From the NCBI GenBank assembly GCA_963575745.1, contig CAUYUJ010000004.1, positions 558,001 through 622,000 of the forward strand: a stretch of 64,000 nt of DNA, written 5' to 3'. The DNA comes from Prorocentrum cordatum. Its lineage: Eukaryota. The position numbers were made by a program, and so were the translations under genes. Below, piece after piece: positions 1-49,965 of this stretch (its first letter is position 1; each line of letters begins with the position of its first letter). The notes under the pieces are model-generated. The model was not told the DNA's origin. It was given only the letters and a program-made list of their open reading frames with translations, and searched no databases.

Positions 1-960
1 AGAGGGCGTAAGAACCTACGAATGGCTCATATCTCAAATTGAATGGATGATGTTGCGTGAGAAGGAAGAATGGAACATCAGTATGCATGAGGGTACTTTG
101 AACCAACGTGCTTGACAGACGCGGTTAGGCGGTGGTGGAGGCAACGGCAATGACAATCGTCGAGGTGCCAACGGCAAAGCCGCTGCGGCAGAAGTGGCAG
201 CCCGTCTCGGGAAGTCCACGGATCTCATGAAGAGCGGATTGACCAAGGGCGAGACGACGTGCAAATTTGTACGTAAGGGAGACACCTGCCCATATGCAGG
301 TCAGGGATGCCCGTTTAATCACAAGAAGCCCGAAGCCGCCGCACCGGCCCAGCCGGGTGCGGGGGCTAAGTCGAATGCTGCCCAGGTTCCGAAGTCGAGT
401 CCCAGAGGGAGGTTTGAGAAACCGAAAGGCGGAGGCCGAAAGGCCCAGAGCCGGTCACAGACCCCGACAGGTAGCCGTAGAAAGGTGCGCAGCAACGGAA
501 TAGGAGTCAATCCGACCGTTCAGGTAGAAAACAGAGCAAGATGCTGTGTTACCCTTACTCACGGGATCCCAAGAACTGCCGTGGACCTCCTGACGGTTGC
601 TACAGGGAACACAGAGCCTTGACCGACGCAGAAAAATTCAAGCGAGACAAGTATGAACAAGCGAAGCTTAATGCAGGTCAGACTCTAAAGTATGAGCGCA
701 CAATCAAACAGGCCAATGCCGCTGCCGCAAATGTTGCTTCGTCTGCAGGTGGCGGTGGCTCTAGGGCCTCCAGCACCAGTTCGGAAACACGAGAGAAAGA
801 TGGAGACAATAACAAAGGCAGAGGCAAAGGTAAAGCATGCTATGTCGCTCTTTCAAGGAAACGGGAAAGTGCACGCGTGGAAAGGAGTGTTGGTTCGCTC
901 AGACCACACCCAACCATCCGTGACACTGGCTCCGCACTGGCGGCCCAGCCGCCAGTGCAG
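1..960 (+). pseudogene. C-terminal part of Gag with CCCH-type zinc fingers
   Basis: TCKFVRKGDTCPYAGQGCPFNH (~257-322), CYPYSRDPKNCRGPPDGCYREH (~544-610) and a frameshifted third finger (ETGKCTRGKECWF, ~858-897). Homologous to 38900-39540. Confidence 0.7.
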
Positions 961-1599
961 GAATATTGATAGGAATAATTGTGTTAGGGGTGCTCTTTCT
1001 TGCCTTCCTCGCTAGACGGTTGCGGCGACGCCCGCGTCGGTCAAACCGAAAGTGGGGGGGCAGGGAGGTGCCCGCTGACCCAGTTAGCTTGGGCGTGATA
1101 GCATGCCCCGCCCCGTTCGTTCGGGGCCTCCCTGGGCAGAAGCAGGCCAGCCCACATTTTCCAAAGGCCTCTATAAATATAAATGGAGGAGTTGAAACAC
1201 GCCCCTCCGATGGAGAGCCCCTCCACGAGTGCAGGCAGCAAGTTGGAAGTCTTGTAAATATTGTCAATTTCCTGCATCCTCTTTCTCGGGGCGCTATCAA
1301 GATGCATTGGAGCGAGTCCCCTAACAAGAGTTGCATTCGATCTCAGACGAAGGATCGGTGCAAATTCCGCGTCCGATTTCACCCCTCGACTGCAGAGCCC
1401 GCCATCACTTGTAGGAAGGCGCGTCGCCACGACCTAAAAGAGTTGCCCTCAAGTGACGAAGACAAATGGAGGCCCCCAGCTAAAATGCGCCAGCAGTTGT
1501 CCACTCAGTGGAGAGCGTCTGCGGCGGAGGCCCTGATCAGGGCGTCAGACCTGCAAGATGACGTCTGGCACCTTTGGTTGAGGACTGAGGAGGGGGAAG

Positions 1600-1979
1600 A
1601 GGGCCCACGCGGATCTGGAGCGTATCTTGGAGCGCTGAGCTTTATAATTGATACAGGGTGTGGGTATAACCTCATAGCGGAAATGTATATTAAGAGTACA
1701 GGTGCAATGAGACTGATTCGAAAGCTTCCGCAATCGATCACTCTGAATACTGCCGGGGGAGAATCAAAAGCCTTCGGTTCAGTTCGCATCGCATTCCCTA
1801 AATTTAAGGGTGGTAGTTTTAACGCTTTGGTCATGCCGGAGACTCCGTGCGTGATCTCGGTAGAAGAGTGGTGCATGGACCACGGCTTTAGTTTCTTCTG
1901 GCCAGCAGGCCGAAGGCCCTACCTTTTGCTGCCGAACGGTCAAAGAGTGGACCTGATCGTTGAGGGCAAGATCCCATAA
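1600..1979 (+). pseudogene. Retroviral-type aspartic protease
   Basis: FIIDTGCGYNLI (D at 1650), followed by ITLNTAGG and PCVIS, typical of retrotransposon proteases. Confidence 0.8.
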
Positions 1980-2639
1980 TTGACCCTTTCAGGCAAAGAA
2001 GCGCTGGGTCAGTGGATGCGCGCGGTTGTCGCTGGAGAGGGTGAACCTCCCGAGCGGTGGTGTTGCGTGACGCCGGGCGCCAAGGCATTTCTGGACAATG
2101 TGGAATCGGCGGGTTGCCCTCCGCCCCGTACTGTTCAGACTCGCGTAACCATAGACTTGCATACGCATGAATTGATTGGCAACCGCAGCTACGTTGACGG
2201 ACGGCCGACTGAGCTCGCGCCTGTTTTTCCGTCCTCATTAGACTCTGCGGATACCATCACTTATTTTTACTATTCGCCTCGTAAGGCTAGCGAGAGCGGT
2301 TGGAGTCGGACACCGACCGGCGTTGCTGCCTCCAAATGTCCTTCGACTTTGCCCTGCCACGGCCAAGCCGCTGGTCAGACCGATGAGCAGCCCGGCAAAG
2401 TTGTGGCCCGCGCAGCCGCATATAAGAGCCCTTGTTGGTACGGGGTCTCTGGATACCTCCCCTACGACATGGATCGAGGGTTGGACTCCAATGCGCACGA
2501 CGCGGCCCCCGGGCCCGAGGAGGGCGAAGTTGGAGACGCTGACGGCGTCGACCTGGTCGACGCCGACGACCGTCAGAACCAGACCCAGACGATGCAGAGG
2601 TTGAGGTGTCGGGTTCCCTTGCCGAGCGGCTCAAAAAGG

Positions 2640-3420
2640 CCGCAGCCCCCCTGCCGCATCTTCTAACTCATACTCCCAAGAACCCGTATTGCTCAGTATG
2701 AAATTGGGCCAAAGCTATCAGACGACAGCAGCGCAAAGCGCGCAACAAAGGGCTGAAGGTTCCCCGCCCATACGCTAACCCCACTTCGTTTGGACACCTG
2801 ACGACGATGGACCATTGGTTTGCGATGGATGAACTCTCGCGGGGGCTCCACGATGAGACCGCGTGCGTGACTTTTCGCGACCGAGCAACTGATTTTTCCT
2901 CGCCGCTCAAGGTGTTCACGACAAGCCTGCGGCTCATCTTTCTAACTTTTTAGTGAACCTGAAGGCCCTGGGAGAAAAGTTAGAGTATTGTTACACAGAT
3001 GGCGCACGTGAGCTTGCAAGGGCATGTTACGAACTCAAGATTGCCCATGATCCTACCACCCCAGGAAATAAGAAACAAAACGCTGTTGCCGAGCGTGCGA
3101 ACGGCGTGGTACAGATGGGGGCCCGAGCGCTGCTCATGCAGGCCAGTCTCCCACCACCATATTGGACCTATGCCGTCAGATATTTTCGTATTTGCTACAA
3201 TGCAAGGACGCTTCGGGAAGGGAAGTCTAGTTGGGAACGTCGCTTCGGACACCCATTGAGGCGCCGCTTCTTCCCTTCGGGTCTCTCGCACGCTATGCGC
3301 CCCCGCCTGGATCGAGATTTCGGACAGCCAAGACTGGCGGAACGATGATCCCTGGGTTATACCTAGGGTATGTGCACAAAGCGGGGGGGACGGTTGGCCC
3401 AGAGAGCTACGTTGTGCCGC
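2640..3420 (+). pseudogene. Integrase (HHCC zinc finger and DDE core)
   Basis: HLLTHTPKNPYCSV* (last Cys mutated to stop), TMDHW, YTDGARELARAC, NAVAERANG, LPPPYWTYAVRY and PFGSL...PGLYLGY, spread over shifted frames. Confidence 0.85.
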
Positions 3421-4889
3421 TAAGACAGCCAAATGGGCTTAATATGGAATCAGGGCGCACGCCCGAGGGTAAGCGACCCGCCATAGAGAAGTCCGATCAG
3501 GTCTACAGCAACATCTTGGATGGCACTGCTGAGGATCAATCTCCTCGATTCCCTTTGAGGAAAGCGTGCGATCAGGCTATGACCGAAGTGCGCTCCGTTA
3601 CGATCCCCCCAGCCGGCGAGGCTGCGGCCGTCCCAGACGGTTCGGGGCAGGGGACAGGGGCGCAATCGGTCCATCCGTTTTGTGCAGAGGATCCCGCCAT
3701 AATTATGCCACCGCCTCCTCGAGGAGGCGAGGGCGCTCCACCGCCAGACTCCGAGGCCGATTCCGATGATGATGACGGTTCGGGGGGGTTATGCGTGGAT
3801 GACGAGCTTGTGGTGATTGACGGTCGGGGCCCGCAGCGAGACTCTCGCCCAGACGAAGATAAAGATCAGAAGTTCGGTCTCGCACATATCGAGTACCGTT
3901 TGGATCGACAATCTAATTTCTCAGCGGCCAAGCCGCGTGAGAAAGTTCCCAGGGAAGGGCAGCTCCTTGCTCGCGCGACCCAGAACCTTGACGCGATGGA
4001 AGACTATGAGGACAGGCGCATTGTCGTCGGCCTAACTAAAGAGGAATTAACACAGAAGCTCCCGTTCACAGGTCGTCGCAAGACGTGCAGCATGCGGGTT
4101 GTACTTTATTATGATCCCGACTGCGTTCCCGTGACCCGTGTGTGGGTCACCGATCCAGATCCTAAGCGCGGTGCTCAATGGCTGAAGAAATTGCCTGAAT
4201 CCACCAATCCTAGAATTCATCCCGGACGCTGGTTCAACATGAATCAGGCTCAACGCCGACAAGCCGTCGAGCAATACAAGGCCAAGAAGAGAGGATTCTT
4301 TGGAATAGACGATCCCGGTCCTTGTCTTGCCCTCCTGCGTGATATAGGCTTGGATGTGGAAGATCCACCAACTCCGCCCGCGCCCGCAGTGGCCCAGCCA
4401 CCCGCGGTTCGTCCTGTCTCTGAGGAGGACGCTGCCTACCTTGCGACGCATCCAAAGGCAAGAAGAGCCGCGCCGCGGGTTGTTGAGCGATTCCGTCGCC
4501 AGGCGGCACAGGGCGGCCAAGCCGCAGCTGTAGCCGCCGACCCCCCTGAGGAGGATGACTCCGACGACTATCTTTCGGATGATGAGGATGTATGGTGGAA
4601 GCAAACTTGGCGCGGTGGTACCATAGCACGTGACGGTGTTCCCTCCGGCCCAGCCGGCAGTGGCCTGTTATCCGATGTGGGTTCTGAGGTGACATAAGAG
4701 GCAAGCCTGGCCTTGAGTCCGGCGGCCGCCGCGTCGCGGCGAAGCGTGCCTCGAATGCCGTTGCAGCATAGCTCGGCCCCAATGCCTAGTCACCGTGAAA
4801 AGGAAAGATTTGATTTGGATTATTTATACAACCCTTTTACTGATCTCACGTCAATTGTTGACGAGCATTTTCAACTTCCCAGCGAATGG

Positions 4890-5157
4890 CAGCACGCTAG
4901 GATTGATGCCGCTGTAGCTCGCTCCGTTTCCAAAGTTGAGGCCCAGGCTAATCAAGATGCCCAGGCTGCTCCGAGAAAGGAATGGAACATATTGCGAGAC
5001 ATAGGTACATGGGGCGAGGAAGGCGCCATATGATATTCCGATGTCGTTGCAGAACTCAAAGGACAGACTGCCCACTTCGGTCGTCTGTTCGCAATCCTTG
5101 TCGAAAAGAACTCAGAGTTGCCACCCGGACACAAACGTCGTATATATACATATATAC

Positions 5158-5210
<53 letters not shown>

Positions 5211-6620
5211 AGTGGCACGTGTGTGCCCAGGCTCATACAACAAGCTGAAGGGGCGTTTGAAGCAGGAGTGACATGCAACAGCGAAGTCGCACTCGAGCGC
5301 AAGTGGGGTTGCCACACCTTGCGATGTGTGTACCAGGGCCCCCCAGGAAGCCTCAGGAGGCCCGACTTGGATACCAGGAGAGGCTCCAGGAGGCCCCAGG
5401 ATTGTGAGTGTTGTGTGTGTGTGATGTGTGCTTTGTGTGGTGCGTGCTTTTTGCGTGTTGTCGGTGTTGTGTGTGTGTGTATGTTATGTTTGTCTAGCGT
5501 GTGATGTGTTGGGCGTGATTTGTGTCTCTGTGTGTGCATGTAGTTCTGAAGCCCCAGGAGGCCCCAGGAGGCCCCAGGAGGCCCCAGGCGGCCTCAGCAG
5601 GCCCAGGAGAACTCCAGGAGGCTCCGAGGCGGGGTCTGGGGTACCAGAAGGTCCAGAAAGCCCCAGGAGGCCCCAGGAGGTTCCTGGAGGCCCCCAGGAG
5701 GCTCCGAGGAGGGGTCTGGGGCTCGATTTTGGGAGGATGTCTCAGGCGAAACCGCCATTCTCTGAGAATCGGAGTCAAAATCATTGAAATTACCATGTGT
5801 TTTTGAAGGTTTTATGATAAAATGTTGGAAATCCTATGTGTTTTTGGACCTCTCCTTCACGATCTGCGTGAGGGGTGCCACCGATTTTCAGAATTTTGAG
5901 GATGTCCCTAGCGAAACGGCCGGGAAAATCGAAGACGCACGCACGCACGGACGCACGGACGCATTAATCCCCTCTGAGCTCTACTCCCTCGGAGAGGTGC
6001 GTATGAGAATATATATATATATAAAGGTCGGGTAGTTTTCGATGGTTCAAGCGTGAGAGATCAGAATAAGGACGTTGCTTTATTTCAAGAACTTCCCAGC
6101 TGTCCTGCTACAATGCAGGCCAGCAAAGCAGCTGATACCTACGGGCTCTTGGAAGGCCATAGTATTGAACAAGTCGACGCCCGCCAGGCCTATACTCAGT
6201 CAAAGTTGGGTGGCACCGCGACGTGGGTATTCCTACCCTGTGATGAGTGGCCCGAGTCATGGTCGCATATGCGCAACCCCGTATGCCCGTTGATTTTATT
6301 TTTATACGGACACCCTGATTCAGGGGGGGATATCGGGGGCAACACAGCGAAGGGCACGTTACGGCTAAAGGATTTATAATATGTAGCCCGTGGCGCAGCT
6401 GCTACTTTCATACAGAGCTGAAGTTGTTATTGATAATTTACGTTGGCGATTTTAAGCTGGCTGGCCCTGCAGACAAGCTAGTTCAAGTTTGGATGTTGTT
6501 ACAACCCCCATCTCCCAATTGCTCGAAAGGCATAGAGATAGATCCTCCGACCGCGGTCGGACGATATTTGGGTTGTGAACATCGACTGTCCACGCAGTTT
6601 GTCGAGCGGCAAGGTGAGTT
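4890..6620 (+). pseudogene. Copia-type reverse transcriptase, interrupted by an insertion at ~5141-6020
   Basis: KEWNILRDIGTW, VEKNSELP, KRR|IYKGRVVFDG (rejoined across the insertion), QVDARQAYTQS, LYGHPDSGG, IYVGDFKLAG (YVDD mutated) and RYLGCEH. Confidence 0.9.
5141..6020. mobile_element. ~0.87-kb non-coding insertion flanked by (TA)n
   Basis: (TA)n at 5141-5208 and ~6009-6022. Removing the insert restores the RT peptide KRRIYKGRVVF. Contains a TG-rich tract and GGCCCCAGGAG-type repeats (5336-5710). Confidence 0.8.
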
Positions 6621-7049
6621 GCCCGCGACTTTGGACCCGCCGCCTCCTACAGCCAAGAAAAACGCCCCCGTCCCAGACGAGAGCGACGAGGAGGAAACGG
6701 GGGGTGACTCGGCGGCCCAGCCGCCTGAGCCATACCAACCGAGAGAACCCAAACGGGCCAGAGTTATATAATACGACATGATTGAATTATTCGAACCCTG
6801 TGTCACTTTATATGCACAACTCACAGATACTGACCCAGCTACTTAGCCCGCTGCAGGCACCCCGTTTGGCCCTGAACTTGCCGATCTCGAGGACGGCCAA
6901 GGCGGCCCTAGAGGTGAAGTTTGCTCTCCTGCAGAGGAAGCAATGACCTCAGCGTTGCAAATCAAAGTTGACGTAGGGCCCCCAGATCAGAAAATCGTTG
7001 TGCACGGCCTTGACGCCGCAGCGGCCAGCCCCAATGATCCGGAGCCGCC

Positions 7050-7817
7050 GACCCAGTCGGGAGTGCTCCAGCCCATCGCGGCGAAAGTCTTGATGAAGAT
7101 CCTTTACGGTGCGAGAATGGCTCGATGCGACCTGCTCCGCGCCGTGTGCCATACGGCCAGTTGCATTGCCAAATGGACAGAGCAACGAGACATGGATCTC
7201 TTCCGCTTCATTTGTTACATCAAGTGTACCTCTCACTACCGCATGTCTTCATGGGTAGGTGACAGAATGGAGGATGTCTGGTTGAAGCAATACTATGATG
7301 CGGATCCGGCCAGTGACATCCGAACACATAGGAGCACGAGTGCCAGTTATCAAGCAATTTGGGGCCCATACCTTAGGGCTGGGCAATCTACGGGATCTCA
7401 GAGACAGACAAGCGTTTCCCATAGTACTCTTGAGGCTGAAATTGTGGCTGCTGACCTTGCCCTGCGACAAGAGCTGCTAGCAGCCCTTCCGTTATGGGAA
7501 ATATTGCTTGGACGACAGATACGTTGTTTGTTCTTAGAGGACAACCAGGCAGTTTCAAGGTCATTAAAGCTGGAGGGTCCATGAAGCTAGTGCACCCACC
7601 GCGAACTCATCGCATTGGCGCTGCTGCAGTGTCTGAACAGTTTTCTCGAGGCATCGTCAAGCTTCAGTACGAACGGATTCAAAATGAGGCTGCCGACATT
7701 GGAACGAAGAGGTTCACAGACTCTTTGGCTTGGGTTAAGGTATTATATATTGTCAACGTTGCGACTCCTAAGTTCTGCACCGCCAAGCGGTGCCAAGACT
7801 ATTTATATTCGCTGTAA
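7050..7817 (+). pseudogene. RT tether and copia RNase H
   Basis: KVLMKILYGARMARCDLLRAV, YYDADPASDIRTHRSTS, SHSTLEAEIVA, LEDNQA, RTHRI and NEAADIGTK. Confidence 0.9.
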
Positions 7818-8689
7818 TCAGACGGCCCCCCCCTGAAACCCGGGGGGATTCTGAAGCCCCGCTTAGGTCCGAGTTCGGCTTTGCGGAGAGGAGATGTCGT
7901 ACCTAGCAAGAAGATGAACCAGAAAAAGAAGCGCCGTCAGCCCGCTGTGCATTCTCCAGACCCAGTAAATATCCCAGCGGCACCCAGCGGCGCTCAGCGC
8001 CCGGCTGCTACCGAGGCCGCCCCCGGCCAGGCCGCGGTGGCGAACGCCCCCGGCCAAGCCGCGGCGGCGAATGCGACCGGCCAAGCCGTGGAAGCAAGTA
8101 CAACTACTCTTGTTACGAAGGAAGAAGGTTCCAGGATAAGCTCCGACAAACCCAGGTCAATGGAGGAGATTGAGATGAGAGCGATGTTTGACATAACCGA
8201 CAGCGGAAGTGAATCTGATACATCGAATCTGTCAAAAGCGATGTGTGATGAACGATCGAGCGTTGAGCCAGTTAGTACCGAGCAGGGAGAAGACGTGCTC
8301 GGTTGCAACCTTCTTCTTCCTCACTTTCCGCCTGCTGCTGCTGCTGCTGCTGCTAATTTCCAGAATAGGAGGGATCAATGGACACAACACGGACAGAGTC
8401 TTAAACGATGGCACTTCGCTTCCAGCATTGTCGCGTTGACGCCCGCAAATACCGATTGCCCAGTTGACCCGAATAGGTTAGATGATCGGCGTCGTACCTA
8501 TGCAATCAATACCCGACATGGTTTGACTATTGACCGCACGGATAGTTGGCGCGACGAAGATAATAGATATCATCACCCCTTTGAGCAGAATTCGAATGGC
8601 GATTCCAGCGATGGCGACTATCACCCAAGTAGATGGACCGGCTGGGCGGAATTCTGGATCTGGGACGATTGTGCCCAGGCCACTCAGTG

Positions 8690-9360
8690 GACCCGGGATC
8701 GACTCTTGTTAGAATATTGTTGTGGCCCTCAGAGCAGGATCGGAAACCCAAGATTTGTCGATAATTCGTGTAAGGTAATACGGTACACGGAGAAGGAAGA
8801 TATGAGAACCGATAAGGGACGAATGTTGGCTCTCAGTGACATGAAGACGTTCAAAGGAAAACACATAACGTTATGGGGCTCTATGCCCTGTACAGGAGGT
8901 TTCCCCTGGCAATACGTGAACGAAGCCCATTATTTTCGTACTGGGAACCATAGAGCGATGCGTAGGCTTCGAGTTATTAGGACAGACCATAGATATCTGT
9001 TTTGGAATTTGCGCGAGATTGCCCGTGCTGTGCACAAAGCGGGGGGTACTGTTTGCCTTGAATGGCCGACTCAGTGTAACTATTGGAGGGATCCCCATGT
9101 GAAGGAGTTCGTGAGAGAGCTTGAGTTTGCCAAAACGGCTTTGCATGGATGTGCGTGTGGATTGAGGGACAGCAGAGGTAATTTCATGAAAAAGCCCTGG
9201 ACGATTGCATCCACATCTCACGACGTGACGGAGGGACGGACTCGAGCGCAAGTGTGATGGCACGCATGAGCATGTTGAGGCCAGAGGAAGGGAGTGTAAG
9301 TCAGCGGAAGATTACACGGATGCCTTCGCCAAACAGGTTCACATTGTTGTTGCTCGTGCC
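8690..9360 (+). pseudogene. C5 cytosine DNA methyltransferase-like domain
   Basis: LLLEYCCG (motif I-like), LWGSMPCTG (catalytic PC, motif IV), CLEWP (motif VI-like) and KKPWTIAS (motif VIII-like). After a frameshift at ~9250 it continues KCDGTHEH..G..SAEDYTDAFAKQV (motif X-like). Confidence 0.7.
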
Positions 9361-11689
9361 GCGGAGCGCATGTTGTCGTCTCATCGTCGTCCCGTCTCGT
9401 CCTCTGATTCCATATGTGCCGCTGCTGTTTTGTCTCCAGAGCTTGCGCGGGCTGCCCAGCGGCCGGCCCCCCCTCGGACCGCGGTGCCGCCTCGTTGCGG
9501 CTGCGCGGGCCTTGCCTGCCGCGGCCCCCGCGCGCCCGATTGGTCATCGGCCAAACCCATGTGTCAACCGCTGGGTACCCCAGCGGCTAAGCCGTAGAGG
9601 GAGGATATGACTTCGGTGTGCTCTGATGATATTATGTATGAACTCGCCTCTGAGTTGCCTGAGGAGGAAGGGCCCCCGATCGGGCCTAGAGGAAAGGCCC
9701 CTTCCAATTCAATTCGAAAGGCACCCCCATCGGCCCAGCCGAGTGGGGACGTCGCCCCATCGGCCCAGCCGAGTGGGGACGTCGCCCCGCCGGCCCAGCC
9801 GGCCGGGGAGACGGCTGACCCTTTTAGTCCGAGTGATGTCATGATGAATGTTGACATCGAAATGGAGGGTGGCGCTGAGGTTCACGCAGAAGAGATCGCA
9901 GCTCGCAAGAGAGCTGCCTCCGCTGCTATTGATGACAACAAGCCTGCCAAGAGGACAGCTGTCTCTTCGCAGTGGAAACATAGTCCCCGCGACGAGCGAC
10001 CCATCTTTCGTTGCTTGCCTGACAAGACCGAGTGGCCCAGGCCTAATTATGCCGGGAACATTAAGTTCGTACGCAAAAGGGGATGGAGTTGGCGCCTCAC
10101 GATGTGGAGACACGATATCTTGCACATGCGGGACGACCAAGTCGTTACCGCACTGAAGGCAGATTTGGCCGACGCGTCCCAGACGATCTTTGAGCGCCTA
10201 TTTTCTCGTGTCTCACAAGATCCGTGGGTCGCCCATTGGACGACATTCGTCAGAAGGGCAACGTGCCGTTTTGATTGTGCTCCCCCAAAAATTGACTAGA
10301 TTCTTGAGGGTATTTACTTTCAGTCATACCCTGATGAAATGACGAAGCTGGTCTGCAGATTGTACACGAATGCGCCGGGCCAGACTCGACGCCCTGCCCG
10401 AACTCTCGAAAAGGGAGAGGTCGTAGGCCCCACTGTTGGCCCAGCCATTCGGCGGAGGACGATATACGGCGACTTTGTGAGCGTCCCAGTGAGGGGCAGC
10501 AAGACAGAAGGTGCTCCCGTTTTGTGGCTGAACGTTTGGGGCCCTTCGCCACATGCACCGCCCCGCGGCAAAGCCACTGGGGGCGGCTGGGGTGCAATAT
10601 GTGCCCTGCCTGTTGCCAAGGGCCGACGTTACTTGCCTGCGCATGTTGTCGAGGAGGCCCTCGCCGATTCAGCCAGAACCAATTATTTTGAGTCTTCCCC
10701 TCAGCAGGCGGTGGCCTGGCGCAAGGCAGCTCCTTGGTGGACGCGCCCCTACGACTTCAAGGAATGGCTCGCGAGTGATGGCCTTGAAGACGGTGCTGGC
10801 TCGACTGAAAAGCCGCACCCCCCGCCAGACGCAGAGGCTGAGGCTGACCAGCGCGACCCAGTCGTTGCTGGAGAGAGGCCACCTTTGCCCGAAGGTCCTG
10901 AACAGCGACGCCCTGAGGCGCCCTCTGCGGGCCCTCTTAACTACAAAGAGGAGGGCCCCGCCAAGGCGCCGAAAAGGCCACGCTTGGGAGCGGAGATGTC
11001 GACCGACCCAGTCGGCTCAGCAAGCTACCAAGCGAACATTGCCATGACGCATCCTTTGGATAGATCTGCCCAACAAAAGCTTTTGGGCAACCCTGGGGCT
11101 GGTCGGCAGGCGGCCGGCGGATCATCCGCTGGGTCGGCCTCGAATCCGGCTGCCCCGCCCGGCCAAGCCGAAGGCGGGGCGGGCGGCGGCTCTCCTCCCG
11201 GCCCAGCCGGCGGTGGAGGTGCCCCTTCCGGCCCAGGCGGTTCTCCAACTGGAAACCCTCCGCCGTCCGGTAACCACCCTGGGGGAGGCGGCGGGGGTGG
11301 GCCCCCGGATGCGGGGTCGACGGCAGTGGGTGACGAAGGAAATGACCCGCCCTACTTTGGGCGGGGCCCCTGGAACGCCCTCGACTACCATTGGATAAAG
11401 GGAGAGTTTGCTGCGGACCCCAAGCCGCCGCCACACGAATGGGACTCTCGAGTGTCCGAGATTCTGCAGCTTTATGTTGATATTACAGACCCTCGGTTGA
11501 GGGCCTGGGCGTGCAAATTGTCGTCCCTTGAGAAGTGTCAGGCTATAACTGAGATTGCCCGCAAGAATGGACATTCATGGATTCCTTTTGTTGGCGAGGA
11601 CATTGCGGCCATGATGGCCACAGGCAAATCTATTAAAGACTGTTTCCACCCTTTGTGCTTGATTGATTTTCAGCAATGCAAGTTTTGGT

Positions 11690-12400
11690 TTTGTTCCATC
11701 CATATTGTCTCTGATTCTACGATCGCGTGTCGGAATGCGGCCGGGAAAGCCACGAATAGCCATTTCCCTCAATACGATCACGTTCATGGCATTTCCTCTA
11801 AGATCATGAGTGGCCGCATGGCCCCCGATCTTCGGGAAGCGGCACGGAACCACAAATGGTCAGAGCACCAGTACTATCATAAAGGGATTCATACGCCAGT
11901 GCGTTTCATATTCTGGAATTTTCACGACATTGCTGATTGTTCGACAGGTGACTTGCTTGGAGTTTGCGCGGAGGGGAAGCGAGAGGAAAATCCAATCCTA
12001 TTCGCTGGAGCCCTCCGAGTAATGGTGGAGGCAGCTGAGCGCCGTGTAGACGATGCAGTCTCTCGCTCGCCTGATGGAGCGATTGAGATCATGTGCATTG
12101 GCGGTGACCACAGGTGCTGGAGGTCAGACGGAGGCTGCGTTAACCGTATGTGGGACGACGTTGCCACCCTTGTCCGGGCTCGAATAAACCGTCGGATTGA
12201 AGGCTACAAAGCCGCGGGAACATTTCCGCGCACCATGATTCTTGACGGTGCTTGCCTTTATCGCAAATTGCAGCACCCACAACGAGATGTTTTATCATTT
12301 TCTGTCGGAACATGGTGACTAGAAGGTGGACAGGGACGGACAGATGGTGAAAGCTAAGGCGGCCGAGATGTGCGTCGAGCACATGTTCAAGGCCGCTAAA
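11690..12400 (+). pseudogene. SGNH/GDSL hydrolase-like domain
   Basis: IHIVSDSTIA (block I GDS-like), KIMSGRMAPDL (block II), FIFWNFHD (block III-like) and RDVLSF where DxxH is expected (His absent). Confidence 0.4.
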
Positions 12401-13639
12401 CTCGCCGTATTGTTCTTCTGCCAACCCTCCGGCGGCCAAGCCGTACAGAGGGGTACCCCATCGACGAAGAAAAGAGCCGATGGGTATACGATGGAAGAGG
12501 CTACCATTGATGAGCTAGTCATGCACTGGCAAGGCTGGAGCCCCACAGAGAACAATGTGCCCAAGTCTGTGCTTAACACTCGTCCGTTCGCGAAACCTTT
12601 GGACCCCATTTTGTTCCCTGCCGTCCAAGACGGGTCAGGGGACGGGGCAATTCATTCCAATTATTCTGCTGCGTTCATTGGGTTTCTTAAGCGAGGAAAT
12701 GCACATGCAGACTTCTGCCCGTGGCAAGATAATCATTATTTCTTGCCGCGATGTCAGCCCTTTTGTCCGGGAATGCCCCCGAAGGGAAAACGCTTTCGAT
12801 TGCCAAATTAAGGAGTGCAAAATGATCAACATATGCGCCCAGCCGTAGAGGAGTTGAAGAAGGCAGCATCTGTTGCCGTGCCCAGCGGCCCAGCCGCCTC
12901 GGGTGACGTTACTGCGGCGTGGGCGGCCCAGCCGTCCCGCGGTCCCGCTCTTGCTCCTGCGAAGTGCGTAAAGGACGCTGAGACGCCTGGTGAAGCGGCG
13001 GAGGAAGCTCTCCGTTTGAAATGCCCTGGTTGGCCGTGGAACCAAGCTCAGCGGTAATCACAGATTCCCACAGCGCGTTAAAGCAGGTGGCAATCCCGAT
13101 GTCCCTGCTGATTGGGAACACGATTGGCTGGTGCATCAGCTATATCAGAAGGTTAAGAAGTTGCCCTATAGTAGTGCGCTGAACACGGAACCAGTTCATT
13201 ATAACTTCCTCCGACCATTCACTGTAGCGAGCGGTGAGCTCTACAGACCTATGATGCCTTGGAACAGTTACCCAGGGGAGTCAGGCCGTGTTGCACTAGT
13301 GGCGAAAGGAGAAAATCCGACCCGCAGCAAAGAGTTCGGCATGATCCAAGTTCACGCCACTGGAGAGGCGTGGTTCGGTTTCCAGATGCTGCGCACGTCC
13401 ACGAAGACCCCGGTCTTGGAACCCAGTTATTTGGTTCCCAATTGGGCACGTTTCTTTGTGATTAAGGCCGATCGGTCACGTGAAGACCCAAAAGATACCG
13501 TTGCTGATCGCCTAAGTTGGGCGAAGTTGTCGACGAAGACCCACAGGGCGGGCAACAATCACTGCGTACAGCTCACTTTGACTTTCTAGGTACCGGATGA
13601 AAAGCTTTTGGAGGTCCAAGACCCATCCTCAGGTCTGAG

Positions 13640-13925
13640 CAGACAATCTCATGGTACGTCTGCGACCGCTCTCCATTCGATTTTGGAGGGCCATCAGTTG
13701 CTTACATTAAGCAAAAAAAGTTTGGTGTGTATTCTTTTTCTTGTACCAATAATCCTTCCACGCGTACTGCATATTCTGTTGCGGAAGAGACTTTTGGAGG
13801 TGGCATTTGGGCAACTGCGGAGATCATTTTGTATGCGAAGCCTATATGCATCAAGGGCTCGCCCGATCAGTTTGTCAGTGAACCATCCCAGATGGTGTTA
13901 TACGAACTTCGCCTCTACCATTGGA
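13640..13925 (+). pseudogene. PARP-like ADP-ribosyltransferase-fold domain
   Basis: SHGTSATALHSILEG, then a frameshift in the A-run at ~13713-13719, then FGVYSFS...RTAYS...WATAEIILY...DQFV. Spacing matches the HGT...GxY...Y pattern of H-Y-E clade ARTs. Confidence 0.5.
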
Positions 13926-16599
13926 CTCCTGCAGCACTTCATGTCACCCCAGCTTATGCCTTCTTGCAACATGTCGCTCGACAAAACGGATGGCCCTTGG
14001 AGCAAGACTTCGGGGTCGAGCGGCATCGCGACAAGGAGAGAGAGGCTGCCGCGGACCAAGTCCGAAAGGCACAGAGCCAGTGGGTCCCAAATTTAGGGCC
14101 CATTCTTTGGCAGAAGGATCGAATCCCCTACCATGAGCATCGTAGCGAGGTTGATGACATTTGGCCATGGCTCCAGGATAAAGGAGCCAGACCCCCTAAG
14201 ATCAATCCGTTACACAAAGACGAGGCCTCGGAAGCATCCAAGGCGCTTGTCCTGGCCAACAGGGAGAGCGAAGAGGAGGCCAAAGCCAAGTCGTCAACGG
14301 GTGTTCAGGTGCAGGCGCCGGCGGCAAAGCCGTCGGATGCGTCTTTTTCGCTAGATACCGAGAACTTCCCACCTGTGGGGCAGCCTGTGTTCCAGGTCGA
14401 GAGAGCGCCCCAGTCTCCGCCCGGCAAAGCCGTGGCGGAGGCGGTGCCTCCTCCTCCCAAAGCAGATGCAATTGCGAATGCACCTGTGCCTCCTCCCCCG
14501 CCGAGGGAGGCGCCGTCATCGGATAGGACAGCGGATGACGCGCCGAAAAAGCTTCCGCCACCATATAATAAGACGACGGCGCCGCCCCCGGCCAAGTCGC
14601 CGAACGTTGCACCGATGAAGGATTCACTTCCACGTAGGCCGGAGGACGATTTGCCGAAGAAGTTCCCGCCCCCATTTCATCCGAGCCCAGATGCACGAGC
14701 GCCGAAGCCTCCACCGGCTAAGGTGGCTCGCCTCGACACTGGAGCTGACTACCCTTCCGTTCGCCCGGCCGGCAGCGAGATCACTGGGGAGAGAACGTCG
14801 GCGAAGCCCGCTGATGCTGCACCCAAGGCTGCGCAGCCACCGGCCAAGCTGGCGGGCTTAGAGACGGCGAAAGGCCAGCCCCAGGCTTGGCCTGCGCCTC
14901 CAGGTACGCCGACTTGGTCACCAAGCCTCTGCGCGCCTGAGCTCCCCCCCCGGGCCAAGAGGTGGAACATTGAGCGTTCGCCGCGCTCTGGCCGCGGACT
15001 CCAGCAAGCTGATGCCGCGCCCAAGGCGGCACCGCAGCAACAGCATTTTAAAGCTTATCCGGGGCCTTCCCAGCCTGCCCAAGGCGGCACTGGGATGGGC
15101 CCGGCTGCGCGGGCCGAGAGGTCCGTCGCAAAGGCTGTGGCAACTGAGACAGAAGCCAAGACTGCCTAGGACCTAGGATGTGGGCTCTGATTGCCCCGGA
15201 GGCAATGACAGGCCGGACACTCTTGCGGCGTCTCTCCCGAATCAGACGGACGGAGATCCCTCGTCAGAGGAGCCCTTGTCCCCAGAGGGAGAAGACGCTG
15301 CATCCAATATCGTCCGAGTCATCAAATGCATCTCACATCGCCACTTCGAAGGCGCGCAAGCACGTAACGCGCTCAAGAACGAGCGCGATTTCTTCCTTCA
15401 ATGGCATCGTGCAAATGCTGCTCAGCCGACAGTTACCGAGGATCCTGATAATTCGCAAAGAGGAGACACGAGCTGGCTGAGAGAAAGGGGAAACACGAGC
15501 CAGGAAAGGATTCAGATTCTTGGAAGAAGTTTGCAGCCACTGTTGTAGAACAGATCCAGAGTGCAACACCAGATTTCCTTCCTATTCCTGTGATCGCCGC
15601 CAAGAGCAAGCGTTCACAGCCTCGCATTGAAGGCGAAACTGTTGCAAGTGGAAACAGGCTGCCCACTCCCCCTGCGCCGCCGTCCGGCCCAGCCGTGACG
15701 GCGAGCGCACTTAAGCCTCCGCCTGGCCCAGCCAGAGCGGAGGCCACGCCGACGCAGGGAGACCAGATGATAGTCGATTCAGGCGTTGCTGCTGCTTCAC
15801 ACGCTGCGCTTCATGAGGTTGCCGAATCGTCCCCTACCAAAGATGTTCCGAGCTCTTCTGATGAGGAGGCTGCGCCCGCTGCAGAGGCACCGCCACCAGC
15901 CGTCGCTTCGAGTGGACAGAACGCGGCGGAGCCTTCCTCTGCGGACAGAACCCGGGTGTCCCAGACACACCGGGGTCCCTTGAGGCCAGCCCAGATCTTG
16001 CCCAACTCAATGACTTCCCGTGCCCAGGGGATCCTGAACTTATCCACCTTGAGGAGGAACATTATCGATCTGGCCCAGCCTCTGCCAACTTTTTCTGCAG
16101 AGCAAGGCTGCCGCCTTCCCCCGATAAGCGGCAGCATAAACCGACGGACGGTTCGCCCCGAGAGGGCGATCAGGAGACTAATGTCGGGCATGCTTACCAT
16201 GCCAGGGGCAAAGAGCTTTATCTTTCGCTGGAAGACCGCACTCGAATTATTAACCATGCGCCCATCGATCTGACGCGGAGGGTTCGAGAGGCCCACACTA
16301 CCGGTCCTGCCCCCTCGGGTAGAGGCCCTTCGCAATCAGACGCTTGGCACGCTCAAACACATTGCGGAGCTCGTTGAAGATCCCATATTTGCATTATTGG
16401 GCGAGCTTTCCGTAGACGTGGGCACTTTTGAGCAGGTGCGAGATTTTCTCCGTGCTGAATTTCATTCTGATGATGTTCCCAGCGGATTTGATCCTCAGTC
16501 GTTTAAGGCCTTGACCCCATTGGTTGTGGGGGTCACTGACCGTGAGAATCCGGCGGCCCTAGGCTGCACGGAATTTCGGCGACCCCAAAGTTGTCGAGT

Positions 16600-17480
16600 A
16601 GATGGGTTTGCCGAGCGGATTTGTGATTTCGCGACGTATCTCGCGAGACATTGTTCTGATTATGCGAGGTCCTCGGGAGGCTGGGTCTATTTTGGAGACC
16701 TGGTCGAGAAGATGGACGAGGATGTTTTTCAATGCCAAACATGCGCACTTGCTGCACACGGCCTAGCCGCGCTGCAGCCGGGGACCGTGGAAGTCCGTGG
16801 TGCGCTCCCTGAAGGCGCTGCCCATATCAGGGAGACGGTCGTTCACAAACGGTGGCGTGACTGCAAAGCCTGGCCCCCTCAAGGGGACGAGCGGGCTAAA
16901 TGCCCCATTCCTGTTTTCTATCGAGCGTGCCAGGGACATTCCACGCTTGTTGCTTCAATTGAGAGGATGTATGTGCCCTATGGCCCTGGCCTAGCCAGGT
17001 GTCATGGGCCCCTCCTCCATATCACTGACATGGGGACGTTGGTGGAATCCGTGGTCGGAGAAGTTCAGTTCCCAAAAAGCGCCCCAGGGCTTTGCCTCGA
17101 GGCGGACTACGAATTGTTGAGGCTTCTTCGGACCAAGAAGGATCCGAGCATGCAAAGTTCAGACCATTTTCCCTCTTGGCTAAGCCAGCGAAAGGATGGA
17201 GAGCTTGCTCCTGTGAAGAAGCACCATGCCATGGGCAAAGACCTACAGCCGGGAGAGCCTCCATCGATTGGAGCATGGCCCGCAGTGGGCACAGTCCGTC
17301 TGTGGGACCAGCTTCCAACTCACCGAGACTCCTGGCCATTAGTTCTTGTTTTCAATGGCCGTGTGCTCACCCGCTTTTCGTACCGGGTCTGCCAAGACGG
17401 GACTCTCGTGTCCCGTGAGGTGCCGAGGTTCACTGACATCGACAAAGCCGCCATTCTTGCCAAAGTCAGCGACTGGTGGG
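16600..17480 (+). CDS. Tpt1/KptA (NAD-dependent RNA 2'-phosphotransferase)-like domain within ORF 16397-17536
   Basis: FATYLARH...GGWVYFGDLV, FYRACQGHS, LLHITD..L..SV and LVLVFNG...YRVCQDGTLVSREVP correspond in order to the KptA motifs LRH, GW, IRAxQGHS, LYHGT and S/ENGVWL. Confidence 0.7.
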
Positions 17481-20232
17481 AACAAGACGAAAAGCGAATG
17501 TCGTGGTCAATTGTCTTTAATCAGGAGTGGACTTAATATGAGGTAAATGTTGATAATGCCTCGATGTTCGGTTGGATTTACACCGACGAGACTTTGACGT
17601 TGCTCCCAGAATATAGGCATACGTTGCCTGGTAGGGCAGACGCATTCATTCAGTTTGTTCCCTGGGAGGACGACGGTCGGTTCCTCTGTGCTGGATTGCA
17701 CTGGGTGCGACCTGGTTTTGGCCGTTGCCCCTCTTGTAATAAAACAGTAAAGTAGAAGTACATGGTTGCCCATGATTATTTGCTTCAGTCACTCAGACAC
17801 AGGATCATTCGAGACTCGCTGTGGAACAATGGCATTGTGTTGCATGTTGTTGATCATGAGACGCTGCCTTGGGCGCATGATCGCTACGTTGGTGAGCGAC
17901 TACAACGACAACGGAGAGCTGCGGCAGACGTACTGACGAACATAAGCAACAATCTGAAGATGGAGCGCAAATGGGCAACACATAATCAGCACCTTATCTT
18001 GGCTGCTTCAGGTCAAACCTTTGGAAACAGCCGCCCGGGTATTGCTCCTGCCTGGGTTTCCGAGCACGTCGCTGCCCAGCCGCCGGCGCGCCGCGGCCCT
18101 TTCTTTCAGCATCTTGAACCTCTGAAGAGGAGGTTCATAACATGGCTTGCACATTTGGCTGCGAGAGAAGGGATTCAGGCCCCACCGCTCTCCGAGCGGT
18201 GGCCTCTGCTTTGGGCAACAGAAATTGATCAGCATGCGCGTCCCTTGTCTTGTCCCGCTCTGGCTGCCTTCGAATGGCCAGAAGCATCTGACTCGTACAT
18301 CGAACCCATTGAAGGTTGGATTGAATGGGAACACAGCATGCAGGTGACGAACACTTTTGCGCCAACTCTTCGGACGTTGCGCGACGCAAAAACGGGAGCA
18401 GCACCCTGGCTGCCCGTTGCCCAGGGCACCGCTATGGACGCCACAGGGCCCAGCCTTCGTGGACGTCCACCGGTTGCTTGGGCAGATGATTTTGTGGCAC
18501 GTCCTCCTCGTGCTTCCCAGTTCGTCAGCAGGCGCAACGAAATGCGTTCTAAACGCCCTCTCAGTTCGGTGAAACCTGCCGCCGGTCAAACCGCGACGAC
18601 AGGTGATGAGAGAAACGTAGATATGACCCTTGATTTCACCGCTGTCTGCGGGTCCCAGACCCAGCAGATGCTCGACGGGAGGATCGATTTCGATCGGGCC
18701 AATGGACTAGTGTACTCTCGCCGCGATGACAAATCGTTGAGCATCACGTTGACCAAGAATGGAGCTCTTGATGTGGCGGCTCAATATGTCATGGAATACA
18801 TCTGCTATCGCCCGGACACGAACGAGACTGAGAGGTTACGACTGACGGGTGAAGTAACGCATGATGTTCCGGAAGACGTGCGGCAGACCATTGAATGGAT
18901 GTGGAGAGTTAGACCTTGAGCTGGGTCTCCGCATCATTCGCGAGATTGCAGTTGTCCGTGAGTTCATTAGTTGTTTCATTGATGGGGGATTTTATATTGC
19001 ATACAATTCGGCAAATTTTCTTGCCCGCGGCACAGGCGTTGGGTGCGATGATGACAAGCGTCTGACGGATGCATGCGCGCTTGATTGCGGCATTCGGGCG
19101 GCGATCGAGACAGATGACCTTATCGAAGAATGGGCCCATGATTTGGGCAGACAGGGTCGTGCATATATCCGTCGTCAGGGCATGAAGCTGCAAGGGGCTA
19201 TCCACTGCTTATATCCAGACGTGGAAGCAACTCAGCTCCAAGATGCAGATGAAGGCCCCTTTCGCACTGCCCGTGGTATTTGTGGTACTTTTATCGCTGC
19301 CGCCGCAAGGGGTATTATCAGATATGCTAAACTGCAGCAAGAGACGAGTGTTCGTGAAAGGGGAGACGCTGATGGGCCCTCCGACGGCCAAGCCGTTACG
19401 GAAGGGATTCCTCCGGCGAAAGCGAGGCCCAGCCCAGCTGTTCGCCCCGATCCGCCCCTTTCCCCTCGTAGACCCGACGTCCAAGACGATCGGGCCAACG
19501 ATGACGTCGCTGAGTCCCCATGCTCTGCCGTCGGTCAAACCGGCGCGGCAGGAGAAGAGTATTCGTGGTATTCTTCGGATAGGGACACATGGGATTGGTC
19601 GAGGCCCGCGCGCGCGCGGCGGGGACATGGCTGCTGGGCGCGCGGATGGCGGCTACAACCCCAACGTCCACTAGCCGTGCTACACGGGCGACGAGTTGCA
19701 GGGATATTGGATCCGTCAGACCGCAATTCGCTGGATGTCCCGCGAGGACAACGAGCGTCGGACGCGGCATTTGGCGCTTCCCAGTGACTACGAGTACCAC
19801 TTTCGGAGACCGAAAGGCAAGGGATACTCCAGGAACAAGGACAAGGACAAGTACGACAGGCCAGCTCCCTATGCTGGCCGTGGTAAGGGAGGCAGGTCAG
19901 CCTCGCCTTATTGGGCTGCTGACCAGACGAGAGGTTCGTCATCTTCGCATCCGAGACCTCCGTCTCCGCCTTCGGGGCGATACCCATAGCACAAGAGGTG
20001 AGAACAGGCAAGGACCGTGCGACAAAGTCGCCACGGCAGCGCCCGAGCGACAAAGTCGTTTCGGCAGAGAGTTTTTATTTAACTATTGGTGGGATTCGTC
20101 GGGTCTCTCCGGCCCTCAGCCCCCTGGCAGCCACCGTTGAGCGGTAAAGTGCTTTTGGGGTTCGCTCCGGTGGCTGTATATATGTGCAGGCCAGGCGGGC
20201 TGTGGCTGGTTGGACTCTACAAAACCCGCCGC

Positions 20233-20432
20233 GGGGGGGGTAAATGTGCCCCTCTCCGCCTCATTCTGCACCTGCCTCTTCTGCTGCCTGCCTTGCCCTA
20301 CCTTGACACTGATCTGCAGCTGTTTGCTGCTCAAGCGAGAAAGATGCGCGCCGGCCTTCGGCCTGCGCCCGTCGTCGGTCGTCGGCCGGCCGGACCTCCT
20401 CCCTTCCTATACTTGAGTGCAGTTGCTTAACG
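20233..20432 (+). repeat. Putative polypurine tract (G8) and short 3' LTR
   Basis: Shares GT.AA..GCCCCT..CCGC at the start and CGTCGGCCGGC...CCTC.TCCC..CTAT..TTGAGTG...TGCTT.ACG at the end with 35056-35268. Its end GCTTAAC is the reverse complement of the GTTAAGC start of the second copy. Confidence 0.55.
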
Positions 20433-20479
20433 GATAGGTTCATCGATGTCTCATCCTGCATCCCCTACCACTGAGCAGA

Positions 20480-21021
20480 CACCTCCCCTAGCAGACCCTT
20501 CTCGGAAGCCCGCAAAAAAATCATAGTAGTACCAAGGCGGTCTTCCATCGAAGTCGCAGCCGAAGGCGCGGACCCAGTCAGGACAAGCCGAGCAGCGACT
20601 TCCCGCATAGCGTCCTTCAGGAAGCCAAGGTGTTCGATGTTCGTAGCATTGGGGCTGTCCTTGATCTTGCCGTAATAGTTGAGGGCGACCTGTCGGGGAA
20701 AATCCGGATGTTGTATCGCCAGCTCCGGGAGCGGCCTCTCCCCTTCGCTAACCCTCTGAGGGGCTTGACGTGCAAAGAAGACCGCCCGATGGGCAGACAG
20801 CCCTGGCTTCCACTCGAGTGCCGAGGCTTGCATGTGCCTGTCTAGCTGCTCCGCGGTGCGCTGGTTACAATAAATTATATCCAAGCGGGGCCGCGCGGAG
20901 GCTGAGGCATGAGAGAGATCAGGCTGGCACATGTCATGCAACTCAAAGGGGCGACCAATGACCTGCTGAAAATGTCGCTCTCCCGCTGCATGCCGGCGGC
21001 CTGAAGTACTGGAAGTGCCAA
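20480..21021 (-). pseudogene. Inverted LINE ORF2 segment: APE endonuclease C-terminus and linker
   Basis: RPRLDIIYCN...LSAHRAVFF (RLDxxY and SDH-like motifs). The segment ends ...GLLGEVSA, which continues into the forward ORF start VSACITRC. Confidence 0.8.
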
Positions 21022-34458: not shown

Positions 34459-34588
34459 CAGCGCGCTGATGGAAGGAGGTCCCTCAACCTGAGTGGGAAG
34501 CGGAAAGCGGTGTCACGTGCCAATGGCCCGCAACAGCGCAGCCGTACTGAAGCTCGCTGCTGCAAGCCCTGAACGGGCCAGAACGGCT

Positions 34589-34610
34589 CTTGAGCCAAAA
34601 TGGCCACGGA
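34589..34610 (-). other. Dinoflagellate spliced-leader (SL) relict
   Basis: Minus strand reads TCCGTGGCCATTTTGGCTCAAG versus DinoSL DCCGTAGCCATTTTGGCTCAAG (21/22). Confidence 0.92.
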
Positions 34611-47628: not shown

Positions 47629-47649
47629 TTAGAGGCGGTGCTCGACGGG

Positions 47650-49641: not shown

Positions 49642-49737
49642 CTGGCTTGATTTAGGGCGGATTTCAGTTGAGTCAGTTGAGTGTTTTTGTGTTTTGATGC
49701 CGACGACGATTGTAATGATGGTGGTTATCAAATCGTA

Positions 49738-49861: not shown

Positions 49862-49917
<56 letters not shown>

Positions 49918-49918
49918 G

Positions 49919-49965
<47 letters not shown>

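Follow-up and report, generated by a model that had tools for sequence, protein, structure and literature searches.

A probable giant copia-type retrotransposon of Prorocentrum cordatum with a predicted methyltransferase-fold domain after RNase H

The subject of this study is a window of 64,000 nucleotides of Prorocentrum cordatum DNA (assembly GCA_963575745.1, contig CAUYUJ010000004.1, positions 558,001 to 622,000 of the forward strand), and all coordinates given without a locus name are positions of this window. Probably, nt ~843 to at least 17,746 are what is left of a giant Ty1/copia-type retrotransposon, a dead copy that carries a predicted methyltransferase-fold domain and a long cargo. 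The repeat cover of the element reaches nt 20,500, and the start of the window cuts off its 5′ end. The copy itself is badly damaged; what makes it interesting is the family to which it points, a copia lineage bearing a C5-methyltransferase-like domain that standard profiles do not see. In the ancestral element, the frame of a gag-like protein with a CCCH finger at its end would have been followed, across an in-frame TGA, by one enormous polymerase polyprotein (Pol) frame. Pol would have comprised, in this order, a protease, a Ty1-like integrase, a reverse transcriptase (RT) of the RVT_2 type, RNase H, a domain of ~230 residues, and a cargo of more than 3,000 residues. The order is that of Ty1/copia, since the integrase precedes RT.

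The evidence for one continuous Pol comes from relatives, of which a scan of metagenome contigs yielded 19 loci. One contig, L001, contains an uninterrupted frame of 2,877 codons (3539–12169) that runs off the contig end and holds protease, integrase, RT, RNase H and the domain together. It is collinear with window nt 1320–9381 in 11 pieces spread over all three window frames, and the collinearity spans both nt 7815 and nt 9234. Upstream of it lies a gag-like frame of 1,178 codons that ends in a CCCH finger. Another locus, L011, consists of one 3,427-codon frame that starts inside the domain and is open at both ends. Because L001 nt 10264–12169 and L011 nt 1–1906 overlap by 1,906 nt at 99.7% nucleotide identity, the two sample the same element. 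Joined, they give 2,877 + 3,427 − 635 = 5,669 codons without a stop, a lower bound with the 3′ end still open, and at least 6,848 codons when the upstream 1,178-codon frame is added across one TGA. The joined length is 12,169 + 10,283 − 1,906 = 20,546 nt, cut at both ends. Save for one TGA, this intact relative thus keeps a single frame open over at least 20.5 kb of coding sequence, which places it among giant retrotransposons as Arkhipova and Yushenova (2019, PMC6431247) delimit them, by an internal coding region above 20 kb.

The cargo of the window is collinear with the L011 frame in five blocks (8958–9513, 11347–12270, 13203–13718, 13724–13942 and 16307–17746), and is therefore regarded as the decayed counterpart of that frame. 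The original prediction had considered that the whole might be one polyprotein of more than 6,000 residues. This was borne out in the relative, once the TGA is crossed, and not in the window's own subfamily; the giant frame was seen at ~50% identity to the window, which weighs against carrying it over. In L013, L012 and L017–L019 the frame ends ~10–50 codons past the domain. The count of open codons after the domain over the 19 loci is unreliable for decayed copies, L003 and L004 being frameshifted.

The family is abundant. Run X1 gave 13,166 contigs at 80–100% identity on nt 900–20,500, with depth in 30 of 30 bins, and since these contigs cover all of the stretch it is part of a high-copy family. 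A search with the domain piece nt 8607–9254 returned 17 proteins at E≤1e-3, namely 15 short EukProt fragments labelled Pyramimonas_sp, which are 55–84% identical to it, and 2 proteins from ENA. Two further relatives, P0018 (380 aa) and P0019 (1,340 aa), were found among proteins of 379–2,000 residues. No relatives were found in viral contigs, a tblastn search with the relative P0027 against 50,697 phage records gave zero matches at E≤1, and no RNA runs were listed for nt 7400–12400.

Reading frames at nt 7455–12315 were obtained from a listing of open reading frames (ORFs) and a stop-to-stop frame map. The listing contains ORFs at 7494..7817 (ATG start), 7881..9257, 9607..10299 and 10339..12318, all on the plus strand. 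In the map, frame 3 is open at 7455–7814 and, after TAA at 7815–7817, again at 7818–9254, where a TGA follows. Frame 1 is open at 9229–9594, 9598–10296 and 10300–12315, interrupted by TAG at 9595–9597 and 10297–10299 and closed by TGA. The map agrees with the earlier statements that the RNase H ORF and a DNMT ORF lie in one frame parted by the TAA at 7815, and that the C-terminal frame of the latter is shared by the ORFs at 9607 and 10339 across the TAGs at 9595 and 10297. Over 1,029 codons, frame 1 has two stops where ~36 would be expected (our own estimate at roughly 58% GC), so this continuity does not arise by chance. The ORF at 7494–7817 does encode RNase H, as had been stated, but merely its C-terminal third; a frame change near 7560 splits the enzyme between frame 1 (~7230–7578), where the rest of it lies, and frame 3. 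The methyltransferase-like domain proper is likewise divided, into 8691–9233 in frame 3 and 9238–9381 in frame 1.

Comparison with relatives suggests that these interruptions are damage. The TAA at 7815 takes the place of F in all three spanning relatives and is a lesion of the window copy or its close kin. The TAG at 10297 takes the place of L in P0167, the sole spanning sequence found, and is likewise copy-specific. For these two stops, then, the alignments answer the original question of copy specificity in the affirmative. At nt 9234 the DNA reads GGACGGAC, and an in-frame copy would need GGAC. Seven EukProt fragments and P0019 run unbroken through the site (...TEGLERKCDGTHEH...), and seven contigs of run X1 are without the 4 bases, so that the change from frame 3 to frame 1 is also a lesion of the window copy. 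The TAG at 9595 is most likely a copy-specific lesion as well, because the reading frame does not change across it, the L011 frame, which is continuous, shows homology as far as nt 9513 (short of the TAG), and the whole copy is decayed. Three observations count against this reading of nt 9595: no sequence bridging the TAG was found among the retrieved relatives and fragments, P0168 begins at the equivalent of the ATG at 9607, four codons past it, and in some relatives (L013, L012) the frame stops shortly after the domain. The difference table of the X1 contigs comprises the best-supported differences and has no rows at 7815, 9595 or 10297, so it has no bearing on these stops.

Alternatively, the stops could be real gene boundaries or sites of programmed readthrough, with RNase H, the "DNMT" and the downstream ORFs made as separate products. 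The closure of the frame in the five loci named above fits this proposal, as do the start of P0168 at the methionine matching ATG 9607 with nothing found across 9595, and the presence of a conserved in-frame TGA elsewhere in the element, at the gag/Pol junction (921–923). The sense residues at 7815 (F) and 10297 (L) speak against it, and other nonsense codons and frame changes abound inside the conserved enzyme domains of the window copy. The homologous parts form one frame in L001 and L011, and the stops mix TAA, TAG and TGA without a recoding pattern; for the same mixture, a reassignment of TAG was rejected. The start of P0168 says little, since EukProt fragments often begin at internal methionines (MRTD..., MRRLRG...). 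We therefore regard separate products as improbable, and lesions of one formerly continuous frame as the better account. An accidental juxtaposition, in which a host gene or another element was inserted beside a copia Pol, would suit the heavy rearrangement of the window copy, with its 884-bp insertion and many frame changes. The junction of RNase H and domain, however, is found again in 21 of 147 representatives as well as in L001, L002, L012, L013 and P0018, and L001 and L013 have it within a single intact frame, which makes such an accident extremely improbable.

These representatives derive from a search of the domain profile against 1.84 billion representatives, which gave 3,055 matches at E≤1e-3 and 1,434 at E≤1e-10. 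Domain order was read in 147 newly returned best representatives by custom hidden Markov models (HMMs) built from 4–5 sequences each. RNase H lies directly upstream of the domain in one protein in the 21 mentioned, the domain lies upstream of RT in 4, as also in loci L005 and L007, and 122, mostly short proteins, contain the domain alone. Together with the single frame of L001, the RNase H–domain order upholds the earlier view that in this copia-type element the domain is fused to the C-terminal end of Pol. A second architecture, with the domain between integrase and RT, was observed in L005, L007, P0034, P0057, P0085 and P0035. On the domain tree the two orders require three changes, of which well-supported branches force just one.

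Within the main part of the window domain the motifs CCGPQS (8718–8735), MPCTGG (8883–8900), LEWPTQC (9057–9077), HGCACGL (9144–9164) and KKPWT (9189–9203) can be read. Across 111 sequences, conservation is highest at C38, C95, W160 and K196 (100% each), P154 (99%), S43 and E152 (98%), T61, P94 and W153 (97%), D65 (95%) and R59 (93%). A near-invariant R...E-x-C-C-[G/S]-x-x-S-x-L-G follows strand 1, C-V-I-R-L-T-x-x-x-D surrounds strand 2, and L-W-x-S-x-P-C-T-G-G-S-P-W-Q-x-x-N follows the next strand; G-G-x-V-x-I-E-W-P-x-x-C-x-Y-W, G-C-x-x-G-L and G-x-P-I-K-K-P-W are further conserved. P94-C95 stands directly after a strand, and E152 stands after the next strand, followed by W/P rather than N-V. 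The order of PC, E and a basic pair is that of DNMT motifs IV, VI and VIII.

The fold of P0027 was predicted with a mean local confidence (pLDDT) of 91.3 and a predicted template-modelling score (pTM) of 0.85, and it is a Rossmann fold; the window's own domain piece reached a pLDDT of 88.2. The original prediction depended on a Rossmann methyltransferase fold, and such a fold is what was predicted. Foldseek against PDB placed DNMT3A/3B on top at E 6.7e-4, with a template-modelling (TM) score of just 0.36. In BFVD the best matches were putative cytosine methylases of Lactococcus phage P087 (212 aa) and Tetraselmis virus 1 (218 aa), the latter with TM 0.52/0.62. Cytosine-C5 methyltransferases were best in three structure libraries by a modest margin, filling 12 of the 12 top places in one and ranks 1, 2 and 4 in BFVD. 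With the window's truncated model, VIA-align gave tied scores for FtsJ (10.1), DNMT3A (10.0) and dehydrogenases (9.1). By its predicted structure the domain has a class I Rossmann methyltransferase fold, and solved C5-methyltransferases are the nearest to it. We regard it as a Rossmann domain that resembles C5-methyltransferases and belongs to a new sequence family. Its relatedness to C5-methyltransferases is, in our view, fairly probable; it would derive from, or converge on, C5-pyrimidine methyltransferases.

The DNMT-like label of the original prediction is accordingly sustained by the predicted fold and not by sequence, where several results weigh against it. PF00145 matched none of the 111 family sequences, window piece included, at E≤10 and none of 41 long relatives at E≤1e-3, with E. 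coli dcm scoring 260 bits as a control, and the family profile had 0 matches at E≤10 among all PDB sequences. The hhalign comparison with E. coli Dcm was weak (E 0.2, probability 0.3), and that with a six-sequence DNMT profile gave nothing meaningful. The glycine-rich loop for S-adenosylmethionine (SAM), motif I F-x-G-x-G, is not conserved in the 111 sequences; the loop in its place reads E-[FYW]-C (100%)-C (83%)-[G 44%/S 41%]-x-x-S (98%). E-W-P takes what we presume to be the place of ENV in motif VI, and a target-recognition domain is missing. At the strand ends stand six conserved cysteines, an arrangement that would fit a metal or redox site as well. These points would suit a Rossmann module with another chemistry, whether nucleotide-binding, metal- or thiol-dependent, or inactive and structural, whose likeness to C5-methyltransferases reflects a common Rossmann arrangement. 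Against it stand the best matches in three independent structure libraries, the nearest named Atlas cluster, which bears PF00145 (score 0.84, a lead only), and P-C-x-G-G-S, E and G-x-P-x-K-K in the order of motifs IV, VI and VIII as noted above. The sole piece aligned with Dcm by hhalign also sets PC on PC (LWGSMPCT / LLAGFPCQ, E 0.2). Another chemistry seems to us the less probable reading. Very improbable is the opposite proposal, a bona fide PF00145 DNMT, such as a Dnmt3 capture of the SymbioDIRS or KnitGypsy kind, that is merely degraded in the window copy. DNMT3A and DNMT3B are the top structural matches, and dinoflagellate retrotransposons are known to carry DNMTs (PMC5890265). But the failure of PF00145 does not stem from decay, since intact relatives fail as well (0/111); the family is large and internally conserved with motifs of its own, and Symbiodinium Copia elements are reported, in the same paper, to be without any DNMT domain. 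A C5-methyltransferase-like domain of a new sequence family remains the preferred reading.

In the mechanism that we propose, readthrough of the gag-Pol TGA would yield a polyprotein that places the domain beside RT and RNase H in the replication particle. The invariant C95 (of PC) and E152 (of E-W-P) would attack the pyrimidine C6 and activate C5. The substrate would be nucleic acid made in replication, that is, nascent complementary DNA (cDNA), the RNA template of the element, or the primer. The same role was proposed for a Pol-borne Dnmt3 by de Mendoza et al. (PMC5890265). Active methyl transfer by the domain seems to us a little less than an even chance. More tentative still is the wider proposal of an unrecognised large family (>3,000 clusters at 50% identity, with no Pfam model) of compact pyrimidine-C5 methyltransferases that ride on copia elements of marine protists, the single class of retrotransposon for which an absence of DNMTs was reported, and mark the cDNA or RNA of the element, on a carrier with the largest retrotransposon polyprotein so far, at least 5,669 residues, or at least 6,848 with readthrough of the conserved gag-Pol TGA. 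The domain occurs again and again, in thousands of sequence clusters and in both domain orders. Should it be active, one could ask directly whether elements modify the intermediates of their own replication in organisms whose DNA is heavily modified.

DNMTs have been described in LINE, DIRS and Gypsy elements as SymbioLINE-Dnmt, SymbioDIRS-Dnmt3 and KnitGypsy-Dnmt3 (de Mendoza et al. 2018, PMC5890265). Like these, the present element has a cytosine-methyltransferase-type domain in a retrotransposon coding region, within Pol as in DIRS and Gypsy; two domain orders coexist as in SymbioDIRS, and the family is multi-copy in what is probably a dinoflagellate. Unlike them, the host is of the copia type, whereas that paper reports the abundant Copia elements of Symbiodinium to have no DNMT domain. 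The domains of that paper were found by hmmsearch with PF00145 and assigned to Dnmt3 or to a Symbiodinium-specific clade (PMC5890265); the present one is invisible to PF00145, is much shorter at ~230 aa, has no target-recognition domain and reads E-W-P for ENV. SmTCL1–4 of Symbiodinium microadriaticum are copia elements of ~10 kb with standard domains only (PMC5776459). The present element shares with these Ty1/copia SmTCLs the order of protease, integrase, RT and RNase H, the RVT_2-type RT, the Ty1-like integrase and the high copy number. It differs in a coding region of at least 20.5 kb (intact relative), a CCCH rather than a CCHC finger, an in-frame TGA before Pol, the extra domain and the more than 3,000 residues that follow RNase H, and in that no long terminal repeats (LTRs) were seen. 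Burro, Ogre and Terminons resemble it in that the internal coding region exceeds 20 kb and a single huge polyprotein unites many accessory domains (PMC6431247). Burro ORF1 of planarians, gypsy-like and cited there as the record, has 4,873 aa (5,140 aa in Dugesia), and the word "copia" is absent from that review. The frame of the present relative, at least 5,669 codons, exceeds Burro ORF1; it is of the copia type and its cargo is without recognisable domains. More than 3,000 residues without a recognisable family raise the question of what limits retroelement size.

With M.HhaI (10mh), DNMT3A (4u7t) and DNMT3B (6u8p) the domain has no detectable sequence similarity, and the SAM glycine loop of these enzymes is missing. 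In comparison with C5-methyltransferases, ENV is replaced by E-W-P and R-x-R by K-K-P, the target-recognition domain is missing and six cysteines are conserved. Nor is there detectable sequence similarity to the short viral "putative cytosine DNA methyltransferases" of ~210–220 aa in BFVD (Tetraselmis virus 1, Lactococcus phage P087). No description of a copia–methyltransferase fusion was found in the literature searched, most subscription journals and Repbase lying outside its scope.

The features of the element are collected in Table 1.

Table 1. Features of the copia-type element in window coordinates.
Feature	Position	Strand	Remarks
CCCH zinc finger, C-terminal end of gag-like frame (frame 3)	843..920	+	tblastn to L001a residues 1152–1177, 59% identity, E 0.003
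In-frame TGA between gag-like frame and Pol	921..923	+	Same position in L001 (3536–3538)
Pol N-terminal part	1320..2324	+	Collinear with L001b residues 141–492, 45% identity, E 1e-76
Stop against sense residue in intact relatives	1977		TAA; Y in L001b and L013
Integrase (HHCC finger 2657–2701, DDE core, C-terminal part)	2624..4349	+	Frames 2, 1, 3
Stop against sense residue in intact relatives	2699		Zinc-finger C (integrase)
Stop against sense residue in intact relatives	5031		E
884-bp low-complexity insertion between integrase and RT	5135..6020	+	TA microsatellite, 10-bp and 80-bp tandem repeats
Copia-type reverse transcriptase	6020..6618	+	Frame 2, then frame 1 at ~6326
Connection and RNase H	6760..7760	+	Frame 1 to ~7578, frame 3 from 7557; stops 6769, 6844
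Stop against sense residue in intact relatives	6769		E or K
Stop against sense residue in intact relatives	6844		Y or L
TAA nonsense codon	7815..7817	+	Aligned residue F in 3/3 spanning relatives (P0018, L001, L002)
Low-complexity linker, RNase H to domain	7818..8690	+	27-bp tandem repeat 8018–8088
Predicted C5-methyltransferase-fold domain, main part (frame 3)	8691..9233	+	Methyltransferase HMM, E 3.5e-124
4-bp tandem duplication GGAC GGAC	9234..9237	+	Moves domain from frame 3 to frame 1
Domain C-terminal part (frame 1)	9238..9381	+	C-x-G-T-H-E-H ... EDYTDAFAKQV; E 7e-18
TAG, probably nonsense mutation of window copy	9595..9597	+	Same frame either side
Cargo, first part (frame 1)	9598..12315	+	Conserved block 11347–12270; L011 residues 1256–1571, 29% identity, E 2e-31
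TAG nonsense codon	10297..10299	+	L in P0167 (60% identical), which continues both sides
Cargo blocks, frames 3 and 2	13203..13942	+	L011 residues 1889–2158, E 1e-6; stop 13587
Stop against sense residue in intact relatives	13587		R
Cargo block, frame 2	16307..17746	+	L011 residues 2737–3199, 24% identity, E 2e-18; stop 17534
Stop against sense residue in intact relatives	17534		N

At the gag/Pol junction, the window and L001 both read ...TTPNHP(Q) TGA C..., followed in both by a hydrophobic stretch and a poly-basic (R) run, and Pfam matches to CCCH occur at the equivalent place in relatives. Judged from these sequences, the TGA is a candidate gag-Pol signal for stop-codon readthrough, which is unusual for copia-type elements. 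Elsewhere the junction takes other forms, with overlapping frames in L013 and fused frames in L005. The motif IIDTGCG at 1644–1664 is presumably aspartic-protease-like. In the integrase region of relatives the HHCC finger and D..D..E are visible, and its profile matched PDB 7z0h_W "Integrase" at E 4e-6, with retroviral integrases ranking next.

A custom HMM of the RTs of relatives matched the window RT at E 6e-52 and 1e-31. Against Pfam RVT_2 (cut-off 31.6 bits) the RTs of relatives scored 32.8 (L007), 30.4 (L005), 28.7 (L013) and 53.8 (P0057) bits. The RNase H model matched the window at E 2e-73 and 1e-21. The window motifs DADPAS, STLEAEI, LEDNQA and AADIGTK correspond to DAD, STPEAE, EDN and ADI-TK of the compared region, which we take to be copia RNase H motifs. 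Against Pfam and PDB the RNase H region had no credible match, the profile giving just a spurious xylanase at E 0.23, and 20 translated window pieces from 924–19,784 matched no Pfam family, 8 of them none even at E≤10. A point against the assignment as a copia element is that no LTRs were found as direct repeat pairs between nt 1–20,500 and the rest of the window, which begins inside the element. A direct repeat of 139 nt, with a spacing of 10,320, occurs in L005, where the contig end cuts it. In L012, nt 1–77 and 6315–6391 are identical, 77 nt at both contig ends, and arrays of the palindrome-like unit GGGACTACTAATTAGTAGTCCC are present; perhaps this contig represents an element flanked by repeats that was assembled as a circle.

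The decay of the window copy extends throughout. Besides the nonsense codons of Table 1, there are seven frame changes between nt 1320 and 9381, namely the one at 9234 and six more in Pol. The RT active site reads YVGD, compared with YVDD in 4 of 4 relatives. The 884 bases at 5135 to 6020 are skipped by 2 contigs of run X1, and the L001b alignment leaps from 5132 to 6020, so the insertion appears specific to some copies. By its nonsense codons, frame changes, YVGD and insertion, the copy can be taken as dead.

The cargo pieces of the window and L011, the latter in 600-aa pieces, yielded nothing of note against Pfam, and L011 and L001b had 0 matches among PDB sequences. An assignment of nt 16274–17533 to Tpt1/KptA, suggested by a CQGHS motif seen by eye, was rejected: there was no Pfam match, no usable Atlas match, and no similarity to the ORF of L005 that carries PTS_2-RNA. 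That ORF (L005 723–2909) lies upstream of Pol and matches RNA 2′-phosphotransferase (Tpt1/KptA, PF01885) at 31.5 bits (cut-off 26). P0140 has a weak PF01885 match, and the window cargo showed none.

Other features of the window lie outside the element. Just downstream of it, an 890-codon open frame on the plus strand (20962–23631) with RVT_1 (E 5e-19) belongs to a separate element of the LINE type. The plus-strand stretch 38455–39216, with two stops, is 27% identical to residues 733–993 of the L001 gag-like frame (E 3e-17) and probably represents part of a second element related to the first. A further open frame of 1,219 codons (49719–53375, plus strand) matches no Pfam family. Long tandem arrays with self-matches of 70–90% at offsets of ~100–150 bases occupy 43989–45017, 59978–60732 and 62708–64000. 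On the minus strand, nt 34589–34609 read CCGTGGCCATTTTGGCTCAAG, 21 bases with one mismatch to the dinoflagellate spliced leader (chance expectation 0.01). Since it lies 77 nt upstream of the minus-strand frame 33124–34512, the match looks like a relic of a retroposed mRNA. The nearest protein fragments are labelled Pyramimonas_sp, but this match makes a dinoflagellate the probable source of the DNA. Finally, a 546-codon open frame on the plus strand (47065–48702) encodes a PROPPIN/WD40 beta-propeller (E 1e-25) and is presumably a host gene.

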